This document shows, piece by piece, positions 16,320-42,511 of a stretch of 42,935 bases of DNA. Below the pieces are notes generated by a model. It was given only the letters and a program-made list of their open reading frames with translations, did no database searches and was not told the origin of the DNA. Source of the DNA: a virus (taxonomy: Duplodnaviria; Heunggongvirae; Uroviricota; Caudoviricetes); the IMG/VR virus record IMGVR_UViG_2529292907_000021; one strand, given 5' to 3'. The position numbers and the translations under genes were made by a program. Within the stretch, counting starts at the first letter, position 1. Every line of letters begins with the position of its first letter.

Positions 16320-17035
16320 GCGCCTATAAGGCTCTCTTACCAGCCGCGCCCTAACAGGCGCACACGATCTGACATTTGCATCCAACTTCGTTACTTACGG
16401 CCCGTAAACGGGCTGCCCGGATAGGGAATCGATAACTGCTCTCCCATTTTATCCTCTTCAAGCTGGTGCTTTATGTAATCCTGTATCTTCGCCGTGTTCT
16501 TACCCACCGTATCGACGTAGTACCCTCTGCACCAGAACTCCCTGTTCCTGTATTTGAATTTCAAATCACCAAACTGCTCGTAAAGCATCAGACTGCTTTT
16601 CCCTTTCAGATATCCCATAAAGCCGGATACGCTCATTTTGGGCGGGATCTCCACAAGCATATGGATATGATCTGCACAGCATTCAGCTTCAAGAATCCGT
16701 ACGCTTTTCCACTCGCACAGCTTTCTCAAAATACTGCCTATTGCTCTACGTTTCTCTCTGTAGAACACTTGTCTTCGGTATTTTGGCGCAAAAACTATGT
16801 GATATTTACAGTTCCATCGGGTGTGCGCTAAGCTCTTTTCGTTCCCCATTGGGACCCCCTTTTGATTTCTTGTTTGACACTTGCAGTTGCCAGACCGCAA
16901 GGTGTTTTAACAAATCAAAAGGGGTTTTAATAACTGGCTCAAAGCTGAAAGCTTTCCGGAACCCCCAGCCTAGCTGGGGGTTTTCTGTGCACAATAAAAA
17001 GGCCTGCATAAGCAGGCCTCTTTCTCAGACTAGAA
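16320..17035 (-). mobile_element. IS200 insertion sequence (IS200/IS605 family), boundaries approximate
   Basis: Contains the tnpA gene plus the characteristic left-end terminator hairpin (AGGCCTGC-TTAT-GCAGGCCT followed by TTTTTATT on the element strand) and a second hairpin (ACCCCCAGC-TAG-GCTGGGGGTT) preceding the tnpA RBS; a further hairpin lies near the right end (~16285-16315). Confidence 0.7.
16391..16849 (-). CDS. tnpA: IS200 transposase TnpA (HUH/Y1 transposase)
   Basis: Translation MGNEKSLAHTRWNCKYHIVFAPKYRR...HIHMLVEIPPKMSVS...REFWCRGYYVDTVG is the hallmark IS200 TnpA sequence; start placed at the internal ATG with AAGGGGG RBS. Confidence 0.85.
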   Translation of the reverse strand: MGNEKSLAHTRWNCKYHIVFAPKYRRQVFYREKRRAIGSILRKLCEWKSVRILEAECCADHIHMLVEIPPKMSVSGFMGYLKGKSSLMLYEQFGDLKFKYRNREFWCRGYYVDTVGKNTAKIQDYIKHQLEEDKMGEQLSIPYPGSPFTGRK

Positions 17036-25882: not shown

Positions 25883-26082
25883 GCCCTGTTTTGCCAGACA
25901 CGGCTCGGGCGCGGCGCTTTCTCGCTTTCGGGCAGTTGCACGCTGACAGTCCAGGTGATGTTGTCGCGATTAAGGCTGCGCTCTACCGTGGCGCCACGGC
26001 GGCAGTAACTGGCCACCAGGTCGTCGGCCTGCTCGGTTGTGCATTCGTGATGGTGAAACCAGGAATATTTCATCGCCATCAC
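25873..26082 (-). CDS. Small hypothetical nin-region protein
   Basis: 69-aa ORF tightly packed between the NinB-like and NinG-like genes. Confidence 0.3.
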   Translation of the reverse strand: MMAMKYSWFHHHECTTEQADDLVASYCRRGATVERSLNRDNITWTVSVQLPESEKAPRPSRVWQNRAWG

Positions 26083-26678
26083 CCCGCGAAGCTCATGAGC
26101 TGCGATGCAGCGTTTTCCGCTTCACGCTGGTCCTTGAATGTCCGGGACAATACCCAGCGCCACAGAACATCGAGCGCGGCTTTGTACAGCTGCTGGAACT
26201 CGGTTTCGTCCATGTTGGAAAAGGCGATACTGCGAGGGTGTTTGCGAAGGGTGCCGTCAGGAAGCTGTATGGCGTCGTAGTGGCCAGACTCGATGATCAC
26301 CCATGCACGGTATGCGTCATAGGATTTGCAGATGCTGATACTACCAGCGCGCTTATCAGCGATACGCTCAAGGTATTGCTCAGCAGCATCCAGGAGTGCG
26401 GCTTCACTTCCCGCGAATGAGGCAAGGAACTTGGCATAGCCGGTTACCAGCTTGCGTTCGTTGGAGGAGATCGCCCCGCCGGTAGGTTCCCAGTATTCGA
26501 AACCGAGATTGAGTAATGCGAAGAATCGGCGATGGAACGCCGGGTTGCGTACCTGCCGGAACTCAGCCACCAGCACGGCGCCGAGTTTGAATTTTGATTG
26601 CAGTAAATCGCTGGTCTCCGGCGTAGCGGGGATCAGGATTCCTGAGGACTGCTTGATTAGTTGTAGTTCGTGCGCCAT
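26079..26678 (-). CDS. Phage nin-region protein (DUF1367/NinB-like, tentative)
   Basis: 199-aa ORF in nin-region order; segment RNPAFHRRFFALLN loosely resembles the NinB motif RNRSLDQNRKLWACL. Confidence 0.4.
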   Translation of the reverse strand: MAHELQLIKQSSGILIPATPETSDLLQSKFKLGAVLVAEFRQVRNPAFHRRFFALLNLGFEYWEPTGGAISSNERKLVTGYAKFLASFAGSEAALLDAAEQYLERIADKRAGSISICKSYDAYRAWVIIESGHYDAIQLPDGTLRKHPRSIAFSNMDETEFQQLYKAALDVLWRWVLSRTFKDQREAENAASQLMSFAG

Positions 26679-26713: not shown

Positions 26714-27013
26714 TCAATCCGTTGATATTATGATATCAGAGGGTTGGGTGATGCGGTAGCCAAGTCGGCGAAGAAAACGAGTCCCAGATGAAAGGTTGAA
26801 GACCCCTTCATCCTCCAGTAATGGACGGCATGATACCAGGCCATTTCTGCTATAGACGAGATACTGACGATCCAGTGGCATTGAGGCCATAAGCCTTCCA
26901 TCTGAACGCCTGATAATGTCGTACCAATCGCCTTGCTCCTGACTTTCCTTCACAAAACCCCCTTCTTTGCTATCAACAAATTTCACTCTTCCAGCCGGGA
27001 TAATCCCGTCCAC
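26714..27013 (-). CDS. Hypothetical phage protein (99 aa)
   Basis: ORF in the early-right operon orientation; no recognisable motif. Confidence 0.35.
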   Translation of the reverse strand: MDGIIPAGRVKFVDSKEGGFVKESQEQGDWYDIIRRSDGRLMASMPLDRQYLVYSRNGLVSCRPLLEDEGVFNLSSGTRFLRRLGYRITQPSDIIISTD

Positions 27014-27449
27014 AGAACCAACATACCAAATGGCGCAAATTTCCTAATAGGTTGGCTGGAAGAAAAAATAAAAATATTTACTGCAACATCTTAACTATAC
27101 CCCAAAACAACTGTACATATAAACAGTATTCGTCTGTTTTGCTTAAGTATGCACATGAAATCCCTGTTTGCGCAAGGTCATTTATCCGATTGATTTAGAT
27201 AAATTTTATTGCTACTTTCGCGCAAAAATTGATCGTTATTTTTAACAGTTGACTACGTCAAAACTGTCGACTGTAAATATCTGATTGGAATGCTCTCGTC
27301 AGGTAAATGACAAAGGTGTAGATGTCGTCAGGGGACATATTTCACTGACAGCGAGGAAAGTCAGGTTGGTAATTTGTTGCTGCGCTGTGCTTATTTGATA
27401 ATCGATTTCATAGATCAATTTTACCAAATCGATCGGTATTATCGATCGA

Positions 27450-27704
27450 CTAATATTTGTAGCGTTTTTCCGGGAGAAGAGCGTATTCGTAGGTGAAGTT
27501 GAATGCCTCGTTTTCAGTGTTAAATCGGCGTTCTGAGATATCTCTCCAGTGCCCTACCCTGAAATACTTCTGAGCAACCCACTTTCCCTCGAACGGGAAC
27601 ACAGCGTAAGCGCCCACGTACTGATGATCAGCGTGCGGGTCGGGATATGACTCCCCCTCTACCAGAGAGTAAAACTTGATGCCGCTTATAATTATGCAGC
27701 TCAA
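27450..27704 (-). CDS. Hypothetical phage protein (84 aa)
   Basis: ORF abutting the upstream gene stop; no recognisable motif. Confidence 0.35.
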   Translation of the reverse strand: MSCIIISGIKFYSLVEGESYPDPHADHQYVGAYAVFPFEGKWVAQKYFRVGHWRDISERRFNTENEAFNFTYEYALLPEKRYKY

Positions 27705-27947
27705 TTATTTTTTCTCGTTCTGCGCGGCCAGATCCAGATAGCGCGGATCGGACGCTCTTGGCAACGTCATGCTCTGCTCGCGGTAGTTGAAGTATTCACG
27801 AAGATGCTCTGGTTTCTCACGCGCTACCTGCTCATCGATAACAGGCATGTTCATGCGCTCTTTGTACGCTACGCCACTGGCAGCTAGGTCGACGTTAACC
27901 TTGTCCTGCTCTTCTTTCGATTTTGCTGCGATGTTATGACCAGACAT
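27705..27947 (-). CDS. Hypothetical phage protein (80 aa)
   Basis: ORF preceded by an inverted repeat and a TATAAT element; acidic/basic helical character. Confidence 0.35.
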
Positions 27948-28138
27948 GATGAATCCCTCTCGATGCTTTGAGAGGGATTATAGGTCAGGCTGCTATTTGT
28001 TTCGACTGACAAAATTCCGGCAATTTAGCACGTACTCAGTGCTTCAGCGACCGGCTGAGGAACTTCATCAGCTCAAGGTTGCGAAGAAGGAAACCGCCAA
28101 AGTGGAACTTCTGCTTAGAATAATTTATTGATAGAAGA

Positions 28139-28417
28139 TCAGTGAATAAAATCAGTTGGGACAGGTGTGACGCCGGATGAAATAATTAACTCAGGAAGCT
28201 CGCTACCATTCAAAGTTCTACCCACGCCTACAGCGTATGTTTCACCGTTAACCTGTATCAGATGCACATCGTAAGAACGGTGGGACCCAGCTGAAGGTGG
28301 AGAGTTGTTACTACCAATCGACGCCTCGAAAAAATTCAACCGCTGCTTGAGTTCAGTATCCTCATAAATTTCACCATCACGTCCAAAGCCAACAAGTAAA
28401 TATTTGATCATAGCCAT
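28139..28417 (-). CDS. Hypothetical phage protein (92 aa)
   Basis: ORF in the early-right operon orientation. Confidence 0.35.
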   Translation of the reverse strand: MAMIKYLLVGFGRDGEIYEDTELKQRLNFFEASIGSNNSPPSAGSHRSYDVHLIQVNGETYAVGVGRTLNGSELPELIISSGVTPVPTDFIH

Positions 28418-29106
28418 GCTAACCTCAGTTCCAAGTCGTTTTTGACCTTCAATCGCTACCTAGTGGGTAACTCCCAATAACTAAGGAATAGATCAGTAGC
28501 TTTTGCCCTTAATCTCAAGAACTTTCCTTGCCTTAGATGAAGAAATCAGCACTCGATCAAAATTTCTATTTTTTTCTCAATTATTGACATCCCTGCCAGG
28601 CCTTATAAGACGCGCGCTTAGCGATCCTCACCCTTTTTCAAGCTCAATTTAACCTCAAAATCAACTATTGTGCTGAAAAGAATCCCTACTACAATGGGCA
28701 TCAGGAAGCAAGATATAGCAAATGGAAGTCTAAAAAACGCAATATGTTGCGTTTGGTTGGAAGGCTAAATGCGGATATGAAAAACCCGGCTGATTAGACC
28801 GGGTCTTCAATCGGTAACAGAGTTACAGCTCCGTTGCCGTGCCGTAAAACACTGGCGACTTGAAGTAGCTTAATCAAATGCAGCGCATTCTTCAAGTAAC
28901 CAGGAACGCCCTGAAGCACTCTGGTACACCCAGTAACAACTTAGGGACTGATATAGCTGTGAATTTTTAGTCCGGGTTTTTGGTGATTCTTAAACCCCAC
29001 CCCAACAATTAATCGTGCCGTAAAACACTGGCGACACAGTGAAAACTGCAAAGGCAAGCCCATGGGTGTTTGCAGCTAGGCGCGATAAAACTAAGAGAGT
29101 CCCATA

Positions 29107-29190
29107 ATGGCTGACTTACTTATCAAAATCGTACCTCCGATTATCGTGATTGTTACTGCGATCATTGAGTACGTAAACCAGCGCCCGTAA
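29107..29190 (+). CDS. Small hydrophobic peptide (27 aa, MADLLIKIVPPIIVIVTAIIEYVNQRP), candidate small membrane protein or toxin
   Basis: ATG preceded by a purine-rich AAGAGAG element; single hydrophobic helix with polar C-terminus; an intrinsic terminator follows within 20 nt. Below the length threshold of the ORF track. Confidence 0.3.
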   Translation: MADLLIKIVPPIIVIVTAIIEYVNQRP

Positions 29191-29205
29191 GCATGGTATA
29201 GCCCA

Positions 29206-29243
29206 AAGGCCCAGAAATGGGCCTTTCCTTTTACGCAGCAATT
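29206..29243 (+). terminator. Intrinsic terminator after the 27-aa peptide ORF
   Basis: Hairpin AAGGCCCA-GAAA-TGGGCCTT followed by TCCTTTTAC. Confidence 0.5.
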
Positions 29244-29548
29244 CCCCTCAGGTTACACAGCTCAGGAAAATTAGCTCGCACCAAAGCCTCAGCAAACGGC
29301 GGAGGAACAGCGTTACCGCAGCGGGCAACCTGCTTATCCTTCACGTACTTCTTATCGCTGTAGTCCTGAATAATGATATACAACTAAGGAACATACAGCC
29401 TCATACCAAGATGTTCGGTACCCAGTATCAATTGACCTCAACACATAGCAAGAAGTTATTGCACTCGTTCTCAAAGTAAAACCACCTTGAAAAAGAGATA
29501 TCATTTTGATATCATGTCTTGAGAAACCTCTAGAGGTAAGGATTCATT

Positions 29549-29914
29549 ATGCCCTTAAGCACAGATGTTGATCGTGTGTTAACGTTCACTGAAAGACTTG
29601 AACAAATTTTAATGGAAATGGTCGAAAAACATGACCATTTCTTTGACTTCCTTCGAGTACGGGGTGGACAAAATCTTCCCCAAACTGTTTCAGTAAAAAA
29701 TGAAAAATTCAAAATTAGCATCCCATTGATTATGCTAATTTTGTTAATCACACGCTTAATAGTCTTCAAACTTGCGATTATGTATAAGCTCATAAGATCC
29801 AAAATGCTTGAAGTGAAAGCACTGTCTAAAGTAGGCCAAAACACGCATATCTATCTTTTTGATTTAGATACAGTTCGGAAATTGAACATTAAGGAGACCT
29901 TATGTCACGCATGA
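29549..29914 (+). CDS. First gene of plus-strand cargo operon, unknown function (121 aa; C-terminal half hydrophobic)
   Basis: AGGTAAGGA RBS before the ATG; preceded by a perfect inverted repeat GATATCA-N4-TGATATC (operator-like) and a TTGACC -35-like element; AT-rich. Confidence 0.35.
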   Translation: MPLSTDVDRVLTFTERLEQILMEMVEKHDHFFDFLRVRGGQNLPQTVSVKNEKFKISIPLIMLILLITRLIVFKLAIMYKLIRSKMLEVKALSKVGQNTHIYLFDLDTVRKLNIKETLCHA

Positions 29915-30177
29915 AAAAGCCTGACAGCTTTCTCCTTAGATTCAAAGAAGAAGATGGTATCAACGGTATCAGTTCTGAATCCTTTGAAAAACTAATGAAA
30001 GCTACTGGCATGAGTAAAACAGACCTCATGCATTTTGCACTCGTAAACTTAGTGGAAAAATACATCCCGGCTTATGAGCAAGATGATGGGCCCTTGACCG
30101 AAGCTCAATTCCGGACACTACATGAAAGATCGAAAACTAACCAAACGCCGGATGAGAGTTTCGAAATGCTATTGTAG
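29902..30177 (+). CDS. Putative antitoxin-like small protein (ribbon-helix-helix-like), second gene of cargo operon
   Basis: AAGGAG RBS; 91 aa; a predicted beta-strand (FLLRF) followed by helices (ESFEKLMKATGMSKTDLMHFALVNLVEKY) is consistent with an RHH fold; sits immediately upstream of the MazF-like gene. Confidence 0.4.
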   Translation: MSRMKKPDSFLLRFKEEDGINGISSESFEKLMKATGMSKTDLMHFALVNLVEKYIPAYEQDDGPLTEAQFRTLHERSKTNQTPDESFEMLL

Positions 30178-30185
30178 GTATAAAA

Positions 30186-30587
30186 ATGCATTCGAAAATA
30201 GAACCATTGCCAAAGACCGGCGATATTGTTTGGCTACAACCATCTGAAGAATGGGGAGTTGATACTCCCAAAAGGAGACCAGGTGTGGTATTAGGTGTAT
30301 CGAAACTAAGGCATGAAATCATAGTTGCATTCGGTACGAGCCAAAAAACACACAAACTCTACCCATCAGAGTTTCTTATTCAAAAAGCTGATGGCGATGA
30401 TGTTTTTGGTCTATCTGGGTTAAGCTACGATACTAAATTTGACTTAGCCAGAACATCTATCCTGCCTTTTACTACAGAGTTTTTCTCTAAGGCACCAAGA
30501 AAAAATAATGTCCCTTATCCAAAGCTTGGTAGTGTTCATATAACGTACTACAAAGCGATGTGCAAGGCGAAAAACAATAGTAATTGA
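30186..30587 (+). CDS. MazF/PemK-family toxin-like protein (putative endoribonuclease)
   Basis: Motif GDIVWLQPSEEWGVDTPKRRPGVVLGV...IIVAFGTSQ aligns by eye with the MazF/PemK N-terminal signature (GDLIWVDFDPTKGSEQAGHRPAVVL...CVPCTTQ). Confidence 0.55.
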   Translation: MHSKIEPLPKTGDIVWLQPSEEWGVDTPKRRPGVVLGVSKLRHEIIVAFGTSQKTHKLYPSEFLIQKADGDDVFGLSGLSYDTKFDLARTSILPFTTEFFSKAPRKNNVPYPKLGSVHITYYKAMCKAKNNSN

Positions 30588-30594
30588 CTTCTGA

Positions 30595-30626
30595 AGTGCT
30601 GTAGTATCCACTACAGCACAATTTTC
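30595..30626 (+). terminator. Intrinsic terminator ending the plus-strand cargo operon
   Basis: Hairpin GTGCTGTAG-TATCCA-CTACAGCAC followed by AATTTTCT. Confidence 0.5.
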
Positions 30627-30729
30627 TAAGCAATCAATAAACTTACTATTTCAAATCATTCCCCCTGCCCCAATAGGATCTGATCGCGTTCGTCATCGGT
30701 TACTGGTGCTGACTCAGTTAAGTTAATTT

Positions 30730-31215
30730 TCATACCGAACCGCTTTTAACAAAGATAATCCAGTGAGTTTTGTCGTTCTTTCCGGTACGCTGACCAATTG
30801 CAGGTTTCACATCTGTAAGTGCCAAAATCTGGCTAACAGGGATCTGCGTCTCGTTCCATTTGAATATGAGAACGCCGTGTGGCCACAGTACGCGAAAAGC
30901 CTCTTTGAATCCGCTTCGTAAATCAGAACGCCACGTTTTTTTGTTCAGTCGCCCGTATTTTTTACCCATCCAGGCAGACTGGCCAACGCGCTCGAGGTGC
31001 GGCGGGTCAAACACCACAACCGGAAAAGAAGAATCAGCGAACGGCAGTGAACGAAAATCGGCAATCAGGTCGGGACTGATAACCAGGCGGCGACCGTCGC
31101 ACAGTTCGTGCTCTTCGGCGCGGATATCAGTGAACACGGCGCGGGTGTCCTGCTTGTTGAACCAGAACATGCGGGAGCCGCAGCACATATCAAGAATCGT
31201 CGTGCTGTCGGTCAT
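30730..31215 (-). CDS. Small putative SAM-dependent DNA methyltransferase (start chosen at ATG overlapping upstream stop)
   Basis: Contains a motif I-like ILDMCCGSR and a motif IV-like VVVFDPPH (DPPH/DPPY class of amino-methyltransferases); ATGA overlap with the upstream gene. Confidence 0.4.
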   Translation of the reverse strand: MTDSTTILDMCCGSRMFWFNKQDTRAVFTDIRAEEHELCDGRRLVISPDLIADFRSLPFADSSFPVVVFDPPHLERVGQSAWMGKKYGRLNKKTWRSDLRSGFKEAFRVLWPHGVLIFKWNETQIPVSQILALTDVKPAIGQRTGKNDKTHWIIFVKSGSV

Positions 31216-42244: not shown

Positions 42245-42320
42245 ACAGGATATGGAAATTTCGAGTAATTTTCGTGGGATTTCGTGAAAGCACCGAAAAA
42301 ACCCAATGAAAACAGATAGA

Positions 42321-42424
42321 TAAAAAGAGACCGAATACGATTCCTGTATTCGGTCCAGGGAAATGGCTCTTGGGAGAGAGCCGTGCGCTAAAAGTTGGCA
42401 TTAATGCAGGCTTAGTTGCCTTGC
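42321..42424 (-). ncRNA. sdsR: SdsR (RyeB)-like Hfq-dependent small RNA, ~104 nt
   Basis: Minus-strand sequence begins GCAAGGCAACTAAGCCTGCATTAATGCC... and ends in hairpin GACCGAATACAGGAATCGTATTCGGTC plus TCTTTTT; a sigma-S-like -10 (CTATTCT) lies ~7 nt upstream of the inferred 5' end; sequence matches my recollection of SdsR but was not database-verified. Confidence 0.5.
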
Positions 42425-42511
42425 CCTTTAAGAATAGATGACGACGCCAGGTTTTCCAGTTTGCGTGCAAAATGGTCAATAAAAAGCGCGGTAGTCATCA
42501 GCTTAAATGTT

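Follow-up and report, generated by a model that had tools for sequence, protein, structure and literature searches.

Type I toxin-antitoxin (TA) loci are hard to detect by homology, and few families are known in enterobacteria. The element described here, a cassette of about 690 base pairs (bp) in a viral sequence of 42,935 nucleotides (nt; IMG/VR record IMGVR_UViG_2529292907_000021, the whole of which is called the window), is laid out like the 'divergent, trans-acting' type I loci tisB/istR-1, zorO/orzO, shoB/ohsC and dinQ/agrB. In the zorO-orzO and zorP-orzP loci of Escherichia coli O157:H7, the toxin is a hydrophobic peptide of 29 amino acids (aa). The small RNA (sRNA) of about 80 nt comes from a divergent neighbouring gene, does not overlap the toxin open reading frame (ORF), and is complementary through its 5' end, over 18 nt, to the long 5' untranslated region of the toxin messenger RNA (mRNA), far upstream of the ribosome-binding site (PMC3919570). 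The tisB-istR-1 locus, as it is summarised in PMC3919570 from Vogel 2004 and Darfeuille 2007, is also divergent; the sRNA 5' end pairs about 100 nt upstream of a sequestered ribosome-binding site, in a standby-site model, and the toxin promoter is under LexA, a stress-responsive repressor.

From left to right the cassette comprises a segment resembling the nrdA promoter, a predicted antisense sRNA gene on the minus strand, the leader of a peptide mRNA, a 27-aa ORF and a terminator. We read it as an autonomous type I TA-like cassette with the architecture of tisB/istR-1 and zorO/orzO, and give this reading, which is drawn from sequence comparison, a probability of roughly 0.72. The features on which the argument relies are the following.

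28538–29232, no strand: the whole cassette, ~690 bp
28545–28760, plus: segment homologous to the enterobacterial ubiG-nrdA intergenic region (nrdAB promoter)
28668–28695, plus: promoter-like hexamers, -35 TTGTGC (28668–28673), 16-nt spacer, -10 TACAAT (28690–28695)
28706–28721, no strand: NrdR-box-like AAGCAAGATATAGCAA, by alignment the counterpart of Salmonella NrdR1 and E. coli box 0
28737–28752, no strand: NrdR-box-like palindrome ACGCAATATGTTGCGT, counterpart of Salmonella NrdR2 and E. coli box 1
28779–28860, minus: predicted antisense sRNA, candidate antitoxin, ~82 nt, delimited by promoter and terminator positions (5' seed, stem-loop 2 at 28812–28839, terminator)
28780–28808, minus: intrinsic terminator of the sRNA, GAAGACCCGG-UCUAAUCAG-CCGGGUUUUU
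28838–28859, minus: repeat copy 1, whose reverse complement GUCGCCAGUGUUUUACGGCACG is the predicted sRNA 5' seed
28867–28895, minus: predicted sRNA promoter, -35 TTGAAG (28895 to 28890), 17-nt spacer, -10 TAAGCT (28872 to 28867)
28982–29106, plus: structured leader of the peptide mRNA, an RNAalifold consensus with plus-strand-specific G·U and one-sided changes
28982–29001, plus: leader helix P0, GGUG/CACC
29013–29019 with 29079–29085, plus: leader helix P1, UCGUGCC/GGCGCGA, just upstream of the Shine-Dalgarno sequence
29014–29035, plus: repeat copy 2, predicted sRNA target in the leader, 72–93 nt upstream of the start codon, with GGCGAC in the P2 loop
29026–29041, plus: leader helix P2, CACUG-GCGACA-CAGUG
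29046–29074, plus: leader helix P3, CUGCAAA...UUUGCAG, compensated as CUGCCAA/UUGGCAG in locus L062
29107–29190, plus: gene of the 27-aa hydrophobic peptide, candidate toxin, MADLLIKIVPPIIVIVTAIIEYVNQRP, conserved in more than 40 loci
29205–29232, plus: intrinsic terminator of the peptide mRNA, AAAGGCCCA-GAAA-UGGGCCUUU CCUUUU, also kept in Cyrano-type and two-ORF variants, where the stem differs

The 22-bp repeat and the predicted antisense RNA

The 22-mer CGTGCCGTAAAACACTGGCGAC occurs exactly at 28838–28859 and at 29014–29035. An earlier note on this DNA had placed the copies at about 28838 and 29012, some 170 bp apart; the repeat and its first coordinate stand, but the second copy starts at 29014 and the start-to-start spacing is 176 bp. 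No third copy was found in the window at up to three mismatches (0 expected by chance). Nor does the repeat belong to a dispersed repeat family; membership in a known family of repetitive elements was one of the outcomes that the earlier note would have taken as a refutation.

Both copies vary jointly in every variant. The variable core is the same within an element and differs between elements, which gives 12 distinct repeat-pair types. The core is AAAACACTGG in the window type, AATGTATCTGG in most others, TAAGTATCTGG in the phage-plasmid Cyrano and TTGTTAACCGG in L046, and GGCTAC replaces GGCGAC in the repeats of L012 and L042. When the reverse complement of copy 1 was set against copy 2 as an intermolecular helix, 96% of the cells paired and 9 of the 22 pairs were changed on both sides. 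None of 500 shuffles reached these values, and slid registers gave at most three two-sided pairs. Within the 19-nt core the copies differ by A in copy 1 and G in copy 2, or by C in copy 1 and T in copy 2. These differences become G·U wobbles only if the sRNA complements copy 1 and the mRNA contains copy 2. This is one of three observations used to assign the strands, the others being the minus-strand promoter and terminator around copy 1 and the plus-strand structure in which copy 2 is embedded. The assignment gave 12 G·U pairs and 7 mismatches over the 22 positions, the mismatches being confined to the outer positions 1–3, as compared with 3 G·U pairs and 16 mismatches for the opposite assignment. 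The DNA would thus carry a direct repeat because the first 22 nt of the predicted sRNA are the reverse complement of copy 1 and hence perfectly complementary to copy 2 in the leader. These comparisons support the view that the 22-bp repeat is the signature of an antisense RNA-mRNA pair.

The predicted sRNA promoter is found in 20 of 20 distinct variants, with a -35 of TTG(A/T)(A/T)G, a spacer of exactly 17 nt and a -10 of TAAGCT or TAATCT. In the same 20 variants, exactly seven variable nucleotides separate the -10 from the first complementary base, and the predicted start in the window is at about 28860. The RNA is predicted to fold at -31.8 kcal/mol. Of the two strands, the minus-strand RNA gives the more stable fold in 16 of 17 distinct homologs, the mean difference being 4.9 kcal/mol, and the eight bases past the terminator stem hold 5–7 T on the minus strand versus 2–4 on the plus strand (17 of 17 variants). 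Both sRNA stems show compensatory changes, for example ACCCGG/CCGGGT versus GCCCAG/CTGGGC. The folding and covariation search across homologs, proposed in the earlier note, turned up compensatory changes here as it did in the leader helices. A simple terminator scan called neither of the two cassette terminators, probably because the loop exceeds 8 nt or the stem extends into the T-run. Rfam returned nothing for the region, with the whole window searched at the gathering threshold and 28300–29500 searched permissively, apart from sub-threshold matches to terminator hairpins (OrzO-P, isrK).

Two short inverted repeats pointed out earlier are indeed present, though neither is conserved as a pair in the relatives. 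The first joins AAAAACCCGG (28780–28789), which is half of the minus-strand terminator, to CCGGGTTTTT (28972–28981). It was rejected as a conserved helix: it is perfect in the window and L027, co-varies in L012, and is broken in L001, L035, L046 and Cyrano. The second joins CTGGCGACTTGAAG (28852–28865) to CTTCAAGTAACCAG (28890–28903), the right arm of which contains the minus-strand -35 box. Its CTTGAAG-N24-CTTCAAG was likewise rejected as a conserved pair, the right arm being the sRNA -35 and the left arm the variable 7-nt discriminator, which differs in L026, Cyrano, L042 and L046.

The peptide gene and its leader

No ORF longer than 50 aa is present between 28418 and 29530, which agrees with and tightens the earlier limit of 60 aa. 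The 27-aa ORF reported at 29107–29190 is there, preceded at 7 nt by an AAGAGAG Shine-Dalgarno (SD) sequence (29093–29099). The predicted peptide has one hydrophobic helix and a polar C-terminus, with a grand average of hydropathy (GRAVY) of 1.19 overall and 2.34 in the core. Of the general hallmarks of type I TA loci, which also include toxicity of the over-produced peptide and its neutralisation by the RNA, two are found, namely a hydrophobic, membrane-targeting peptide shorter than 60 aa and, in silico, a linked gene for a (predicted) RNA with extended complementarity to the toxin mRNA.

The relatives encode two paralogous types of peptide, A and B. Type A follows the pattern M-x-x-LL-x-K-[IL]-x-PP-x3-II-x3-[IV][IV]-x-Y-x-N-x-R(P) and is encoded alone in cassettes of the kind seen in the window, Cyrano, L026, L012 and L017. 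The two-ORF variants (L001, L027, L031, L032, L034, L035, L040, L046 and L048) have a type B ORF, such as that of MQMLLLFLKLAHPVAVIIMTLLGYWKDR, upstream of the type A ORF. Among 13 distinct 27-codon type A genes compared pairwise, and so not phylogenetically independent, differences at codon positions 1:2:3 were 167:114:564. The mean pairwise nonsynonymous and synonymous divergences (dN and dS) were 0.09 and 0.44, with a dN/dS of about 0.2. By this comparison the peptide ORF is under purifying selection. In the two-ORF variants L033, L055, L060 and L069, the type B ORF starts with ATA instead of ATG, and the type A ORF and both repeat copies are intact. This suggests that the upstream type B paralog may be dispensable. 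An exact-sequence look-up found the peptide to be nearly absent from protein databases, the entries being unnamed or 'hypothetical', and a full-text literature search with the peptide sequence strings returned 0 papers.

The leader helices co-vary in the same manner. The pair types seen in P1 include U·G, C-G, U-A and G·U. In P2 the variable core of copy 2 pairs with a third co-varying partner situated just 3' of this copy, in four sequence types (arms CACUG/CAGUG, GUAUC/GAUAC, GUAUCUG/CAGAUAU and GUUAAC/GUUAAC), and the P2 loop, GGCGAC, is the complement of the first bases of the predicted sRNA. Copy 1 lacks a 3' partner of the kind that pairs in P2. The SD sequence can pair with codons 3–6 of the peptide ORF. 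Downstream of the ORF, the hairpin GGCCCA-GAAA-TGGGCC (29208–29223) is followed by TTTCCTTTT. The earlier note had correctly recognised an intrinsic terminator at this place, but the distance it gave, 16 nt, is to be replaced by 17 nt from the stop codon, or 14 with the AAA/TTT extension.

The nrdAB promoter-like segment and the surroundings of the cassette

The left third of the cassette (28545–28760), overlooked in the earlier note, is a copy of the nrdAB promoter. It is 83.6–83.9% identical over ~160 nt to the Salmonella ubiG-nrdA spacer, and this segment and its equivalent in every non-Cyrano cassette are 75–86% identical to the Salmonella nrdAB promoter region. The Cyrano-type segment is 82–84% identical over 140 nt to the E. 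coli K-12 nrdA promoter and has DnaA boxes, TTGCAT-17-TATCTT and box 0. One peptide/sRNA module thus comes with two host versions of the nrdAB promoter, and each version faces the peptide ORF and the 3' end of the sRNA gene. A sensitive BLAST search also found 28538–28695 alone, without the peptide/sRNA part, the best such match being between Salmonella ubiG and nrdA. Shared with the Salmonella promoter is an AT-rich upstream part containing TTGACA. At the positions of the hexamers, the Salmonella nrdA promoter and the remaining Salmonella-type cassettes read TTGTAC-16-TAGAAT, and some cassette variants carry the DnaA box TTATCCACA. In the window type, 10 nt are inserted between the -10 and the first NrdR-box-like site.

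The two NrdR-box-like sites are separated by a 15-nt linker, or 31 bp from centre to centre. Compared with what we take to be the NrdR-box consensus of Rodionov and Gelfand, they match at 10 of 16 (28706–28721) and 13 of 16 positions (28737–28752). The second, ACGCAATATGTTGCGT, aligns with CCCTATATATAGT(A/G)TT of the Salmonella and K-12 nrdA promoters, and its palindrome is preserved in the relatives by symmetric changes, for example CCACTACATGTAGTGG in L026. NrdR sites are described as two partially palindromic boxes of 16 bp, 15–16 bp apart, that lie at the promoter or close to it (PMC12176259, PMC13584703). In Salmonella, the -10 of the nrdAB promoter is overlapped by the NrdR1 box, and the promoter is derepressed by deletion of nrdR, by hydroxyurea or by mutation of NrdR box 2 (PMC2892513).

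On the minus strand of the segment, the ORF at 28618–28701 (MPIVVGILFSTIVDFEVKLSLKKGEDR; MVSILV...FSTRVDFDVKLRL in relatives) was rejected as coding, with no SD sequence, a variable start and stop, and non-conservative, position-unbiased substitutions. At the corresponding place of the K-12 ubiG-nrdA spacer, a 47-aa 'protein YpaB' is annotated (ypaB; L054:295–438). About 105 E. coli chromosomes carry a lone nrdA-promoter-like segment, ~76% identical to 28540–28696, in a genomic island, which in JE86-ST02 (L052:3001–3400) lies by tRNA-Leu/ahr. There the segment is followed by a hairpin that terminates only on the opposite strand (ACCGGATTCACGCAGGTGACTCCGGTTTTTTT) and then by a 304-aa ORF, which had no Pfam or PADLOC match. 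The island thus has the layout of the cassette, a promoter facing a convergent terminator and then a gene, and hints that a 'nrdA promoter facing antisense RNA' may be a portable regulatory device.

The cassette was found in about 40 related phage, phage-plasmid and prophage loci. The repeats and the peptide ORF, whose conservation the earlier note had left to be checked, are kept in them, the ORF in more than 40 loci. Pattern scans gave 23 IMG/VR contigs, rising to 41 with a second pattern, and 22 usable metagenome contigs (a further metagenome match, L029, was unrelated). Among species-representative genomes, only Kluyvera georgiana and Enterobacter sp. ECC-175 were hit, one 744-bp Actinomadura contig being left out. 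By BLAST, the region was matched wholly or in part by 118 PLSDB plasmids, mostly non-mobilisable E. coli plasmids of 100–115 kb of the Cyrano/SSU5 kind. About 2% of the complete E. coli genomes have one on a plasmid (106 places), and no close match to the region was found in these genomes except on one plasmid, at 73% identity. Matches to the region in the phage-plasmid Cyrano of E. coli LF82 are partial and fall without exception between genes, in DNA that carries no annotation. A canonical LexA box, TACTGTATACACATACAGTA, is located there (L002:3500–3560) between the gene of an S24 LexA-like repressor and the E. coli-type nrdA promoter segment of the cassette, which places the Cyrano cassette beside the immunity region.

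The cassette borders are sharp. In a BLASTN comparison of 27000–31000 with 20 representative loci, homology began at 28533–28552 and stopped at 29225–29230 across differing contexts, and in L027 and L032 the cassette lies in the opposite orientation with respect to the same two neighbours, holE and the methyltransferase gene. The three-ORF operon at 29549–30587 is not part of it, as many other phages and phage-plasmids carry the cassette without the operon. Judging from these alignments, the cassette is an autonomous mobile unit independent of its context, and the suggestion that it might regulate the adjacent genes is not supported. Its immediate surroundings are as follows.

26079–26678, left of the cassette: NinB homolog
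27705–27947, left of the cassette: homolog of DNA polymerase III theta (holE)
28139–28417, left of the cassette: 92-aa phage ORF
29231–29383, minus, abutting the cassette: 3' remnant of a C5 DNA methyltransferase gene, ~50 C-terminal codons (...GNAVPPPFAEA...; PHROG DNA methyltransferase)

The window corresponds to a lambdoid prophage in an Escherichia chromosome, with its late genes on the minus strand and the cassette in the nin-like region. The RyeA/SraC and SdsR/RyeB sRNA pair (Rfam matches at 42318–42462) lies just beyond the integrase end, which places the prophage in the ryeA/sdsR-yebY integration hotspot; the yebY-copD flank is 95–99% identical to all 5,426 complete E. coli genomes. 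The remainder of the methyltransferase gene has been replaced by the plus-strand three-ORF insert, another methyltransferase being located farther right, and homology of the window to most relatives ends at 29385–29389, where the insertion of the operon starts. Of the three ORFs of the insert, the last gave a PemK/MazF match below threshold (22.4 bits, cutoff 23.1), and the other two had no match in Pfam, PHROGs or PADLOC.

Elsewhere in the prophage, a LexA-box-like palindrome, CTGTACATATAAACAG, is present at 27111–27126, 1.4 kb to the left of the cassette, in a stretch of ~430 bp (27014–27450) without any ORF longer than 53 aa. A group II intron catalytic domain (RF00029, 64.9 bits) at 736–822 on the plus strand, at the left edge of the window and after an ORF at 37–732, suggests a group II intron or its 3' end within or beside the prophage. 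A full-length match to STnc490, a family of Hfq-binding sRNAs (146 bits), lies at 16859–16982 on the minus strand, amid the morphogenesis genes.

Readings of the cassette and comparison with known systems

The selection on the ORF and the covariation of the repeats favour what the earlier note had offered as one of two possibilities, a type I toxin-like locus in its own right that combines a structured RNA with a small membrane peptide. We propose the following model. The plus-strand mRNA would encode the single-helix membrane peptide of 27 aa, and the ~82-nt minus-strand sRNA would be made constitutively from TTGAAG-17-TAAGCT and end at its own terminator. The 5' end of the sRNA (GUCGCC) would contact the GGCGAC loop of P2, and this contact would then zip into a duplex of 19–22 bp that opens P1 and P2, 72–93 nt upstream of the AUG. 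RNase III cleavage of the duplex and/or a block of ribosome loading, standby ribosomes being excluded, would keep the peptide off, as for OrzO/zorO and IstR-1/tisB (PMC3919570). Upon loss of the sRNA, for instance when a phage-plasmid is lost, the peptide would be made and would presumably damage the membrane, a classic addiction. It would also be made when plus-strand transcription from the nrdA-like promoter rises. Among 18 variants, no sigma-70 promoter is conserved on the plus strand between the repeat copies, which leaves the nrdA-like promoter as the only recognisable plus-strand promoter upstream of the ORF. This promoter probably supplies a long peptide mRNA, or an RNA reading against the sRNA gene, and either role would couple expression to the deoxynucleotide (dNTP) and replication state of the cell. 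As the sRNA hairpin of the non-Cyrano variants has no T-run on the plus strand, read-through from the promoter is plausible there.

A more specific version of this model, which we consider tentative and rather doubtful, makes the cassette a nucleotide-pool-sensing module. The host nrdAB promoter would have been fused twice to the peptide/antisense pair, mostly in its Salmonella-type form and in its E. coli-type form in Cyrano-like elements. Relief from NrdR or DnaA would out-transcribe or sponge the antitoxin and at the same time supply the toxin mRNA, leading to membrane depolarisation. The module would respond to a collapse of the dNTP pool, to replication stress, to hydroxyurea or to an infecting phage that depletes or breaks down nucleotides, and the depolarisation would serve as abortive infection, plasmid addiction or dormancy.

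If the type I reading is true, it adds an unannotated family common on SSU5/Cyrano-like phage-plasmids and lambdoid prophages, and the natural seed variants are ready specificity mutants for studying how antisense RNAs discriminate their cognate targets. What is unusual is that the nrdAB promoter was captured repeatedly. If active, it would tie toxin control to the dNTP-sensing NrdR and to DnaA, not to LexA. Small membrane toxins would then be linked to the surveillance of nucleotide pools, currently a topic in work on phage defence and persistence, and core-metabolism promoters would have been recruited as sensors by mobile elements.

Several observations weigh against the type I reading. Four peptides of the family matched 0 families of Pfam and NCBIfam even at E<=10 (hmmscan, the sensitivity of which is limited by very short queries), and the sRNA scored 17.6 bits against OrzO-P (RF02083; gathering score 60), over the terminator hairpin only. 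No promoter of the peptide mRNA was identified; a TGAT(A/T)T motif that recurs ~33 nt before GGTGA did not fit one. In the Cyrano type, the sRNA terminator is also a good plus-strand terminator and would hinder read-through from the nrdA-like promoter. High-affinity binding of NrdR in E. coli requires box 1 and the downstream box 2, boxes 0 and 1 being bound weakly (PMC12176259), and the cassette retains counterparts of boxes 0 and 1 only. Since the missing box 2 is needed in E. coli, control of the cassette promoter by NrdR is plausible but unproven. Finally, the G·U asymmetry of the repeats comes from just three variable sites and is supportive, not decisive, and gene conversion or a shared DNA-binding protein could also keep direct repeats alike.

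Among the rival explanations, the best survivor is an unlikely one. It keeps the RNA-regulated module and turns the peptide into a membrane protein of phage function, active in superinfection exclusion or in modulating a host membrane protein, the sRNA merely tuning its level. All of the RNA and ORF evidence is equally compatible with such a protein, as are the lack of homology to known toxins in Pfam and NCBIfam and the retention of the cassette in the four variants that have lost the ATG of the first ORF (L033, L055, L060 and L069). A length of 26–28 aa, a single hydrophobic helix with a polar C-terminus and a tight, multi-layer repression are, on the other hand, typical of type I toxins. 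So are residence on plasmid-like prophages and autonomous cassette behaviour, and a dedicated cis-linked antisense RNA would be unusual for a benign small protein.

It is quite improbable that the 22-bp copies are DNA operators or iterons for one phage protein and that the peptide ORF and the hairpins are unrelated neighbours. The copies do co-vary as specificity-matched operators might, and copy 2 overlaps the short inverted repeat CACTG-N6-CAGTG, but copy 1 has no inverted partner and the 690-bp cassette is not accompanied by a candidate gene for the binding protein. Copy 1 lies, at invariant spacing, between a promoter and a terminator of the opposite strand, the core mismatches are wobble-compatible in one orientation only, and the surrounding helices show strand-specific G·U pairs; these features argue for RNA pairing.

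A regulatory RNA or leader for the operon at 29549–30587, with its MazF-like ORF, hardly deserves credit. The operon is close and on the same strand as the peptide gene, but a strong terminator and 150 bp of methyltransferase remnant on the opposite strand stand in between, and homologous cassettes occur elsewhere without the operon, the homology to most relatives ending at 29385–29389. As for decaying debris of the nin region, a duplicated fragment beside a pseudogenised nrdA promoter without present function, the truncated methyltransferase gene in the flank and the incomplete set of NrdR boxes relative to E. coli nrdAB would suit it. It is scarcely credible, however, given that distinct mobile elements keep the cassette at more than 40 loci, that purifying selection acts on an uninterrupted ORF, that five helices show compensatory changes and that the promoter geometry is invariant.

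Set against the described families, the cassette resembles zorO/orzO in its small hydrophobic peptide (27 aa here, 29 aa there), in an sRNA of ~80 nt, predicted here, from a divergent neighbouring gene that leaves the ORF free, and in a complementary sRNA 5' end (19–22 nt here, 18 nt there) directed to a long leader far upstream of the ribosome-binding site. The variable stretch that sets cognate specificity in the Orz pairing region, V1, would by analogy correspond to the AAAACAC/ATGTATC/AAGTATC/TGTTAAC core. The two differ in that neither the peptide nor the RNA is similar in sequence (17.6 bits to RF02083 from the terminator only; no protein-family match to ZorO), and in that zorO/orzO is on a chromosomal island whereas the cassette is carried by temperate phages and phage-plasmids together with an nrdA-type promoter segment. 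With tisB-istR-1, as far as that system is summarised in PMC3919570, the cassette shares a divergent layout, a predicted pairing by the sRNA 5' end far upstream of the start codon, and a ribosome-binding site that structure can sequester; in place of LexA, the promoter homology suggests NrdR or DnaA as possible regulators. It has no similarity to TisB or IstR, and Rfam gave no match to the IstR or AgrB RNAs. No LexA box CTGT-N8-ACAG, the mark of tisB/istR-1 and dinQ/agrB, is present in 28538–29232, the nearest being at 27111, one of only two in the window.

Family profile hidden Markov models (HMMs) of Ldr/Fst, Hok, Ibs and ShoB in Pfam and NCBIfam did not match the four peptides at E<=10, with the limit on sensitivity already given for short queries. 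A likeness to Ldr, Fst and PepA1 may be seen in the short single helix, the conserved proline in its N-terminal half and the aromatic-basic tail (...IITAAIVSWWRNRK in LdrD; ...TAIIEYVNQRP and ...LLGYWKDR here), a likeness that no search confirmed. The cassette also differs in arrangement from Rdl and RNAII, antitoxins that overlap in cis or at the 3' end. The remaining relative is the nrdAB promoter of Salmonella and E. coli, regulated by NrdR, DnaA and Fis (PMC2892513, PMC12176259). The cassette shares with it 75–86% identity over 140–219 nt, the AT-rich upstream part, the -35 and -10, the counterparts of two 16-bp NrdR boxes with their 15-nt linker and, in some variants, DnaA boxes. It differs in having no nrdA downstream, and the homology stops at or just past the second box. 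A literature search found no paper that links NrdR with type I toxins. Since every specific test of membership in a known family failed (Rfam, toxin HMMs, LexA box), we file the cassette as a putative new family within the known type I TA architecture, one whose unusual feature is its fusion to an nrdA promoter.

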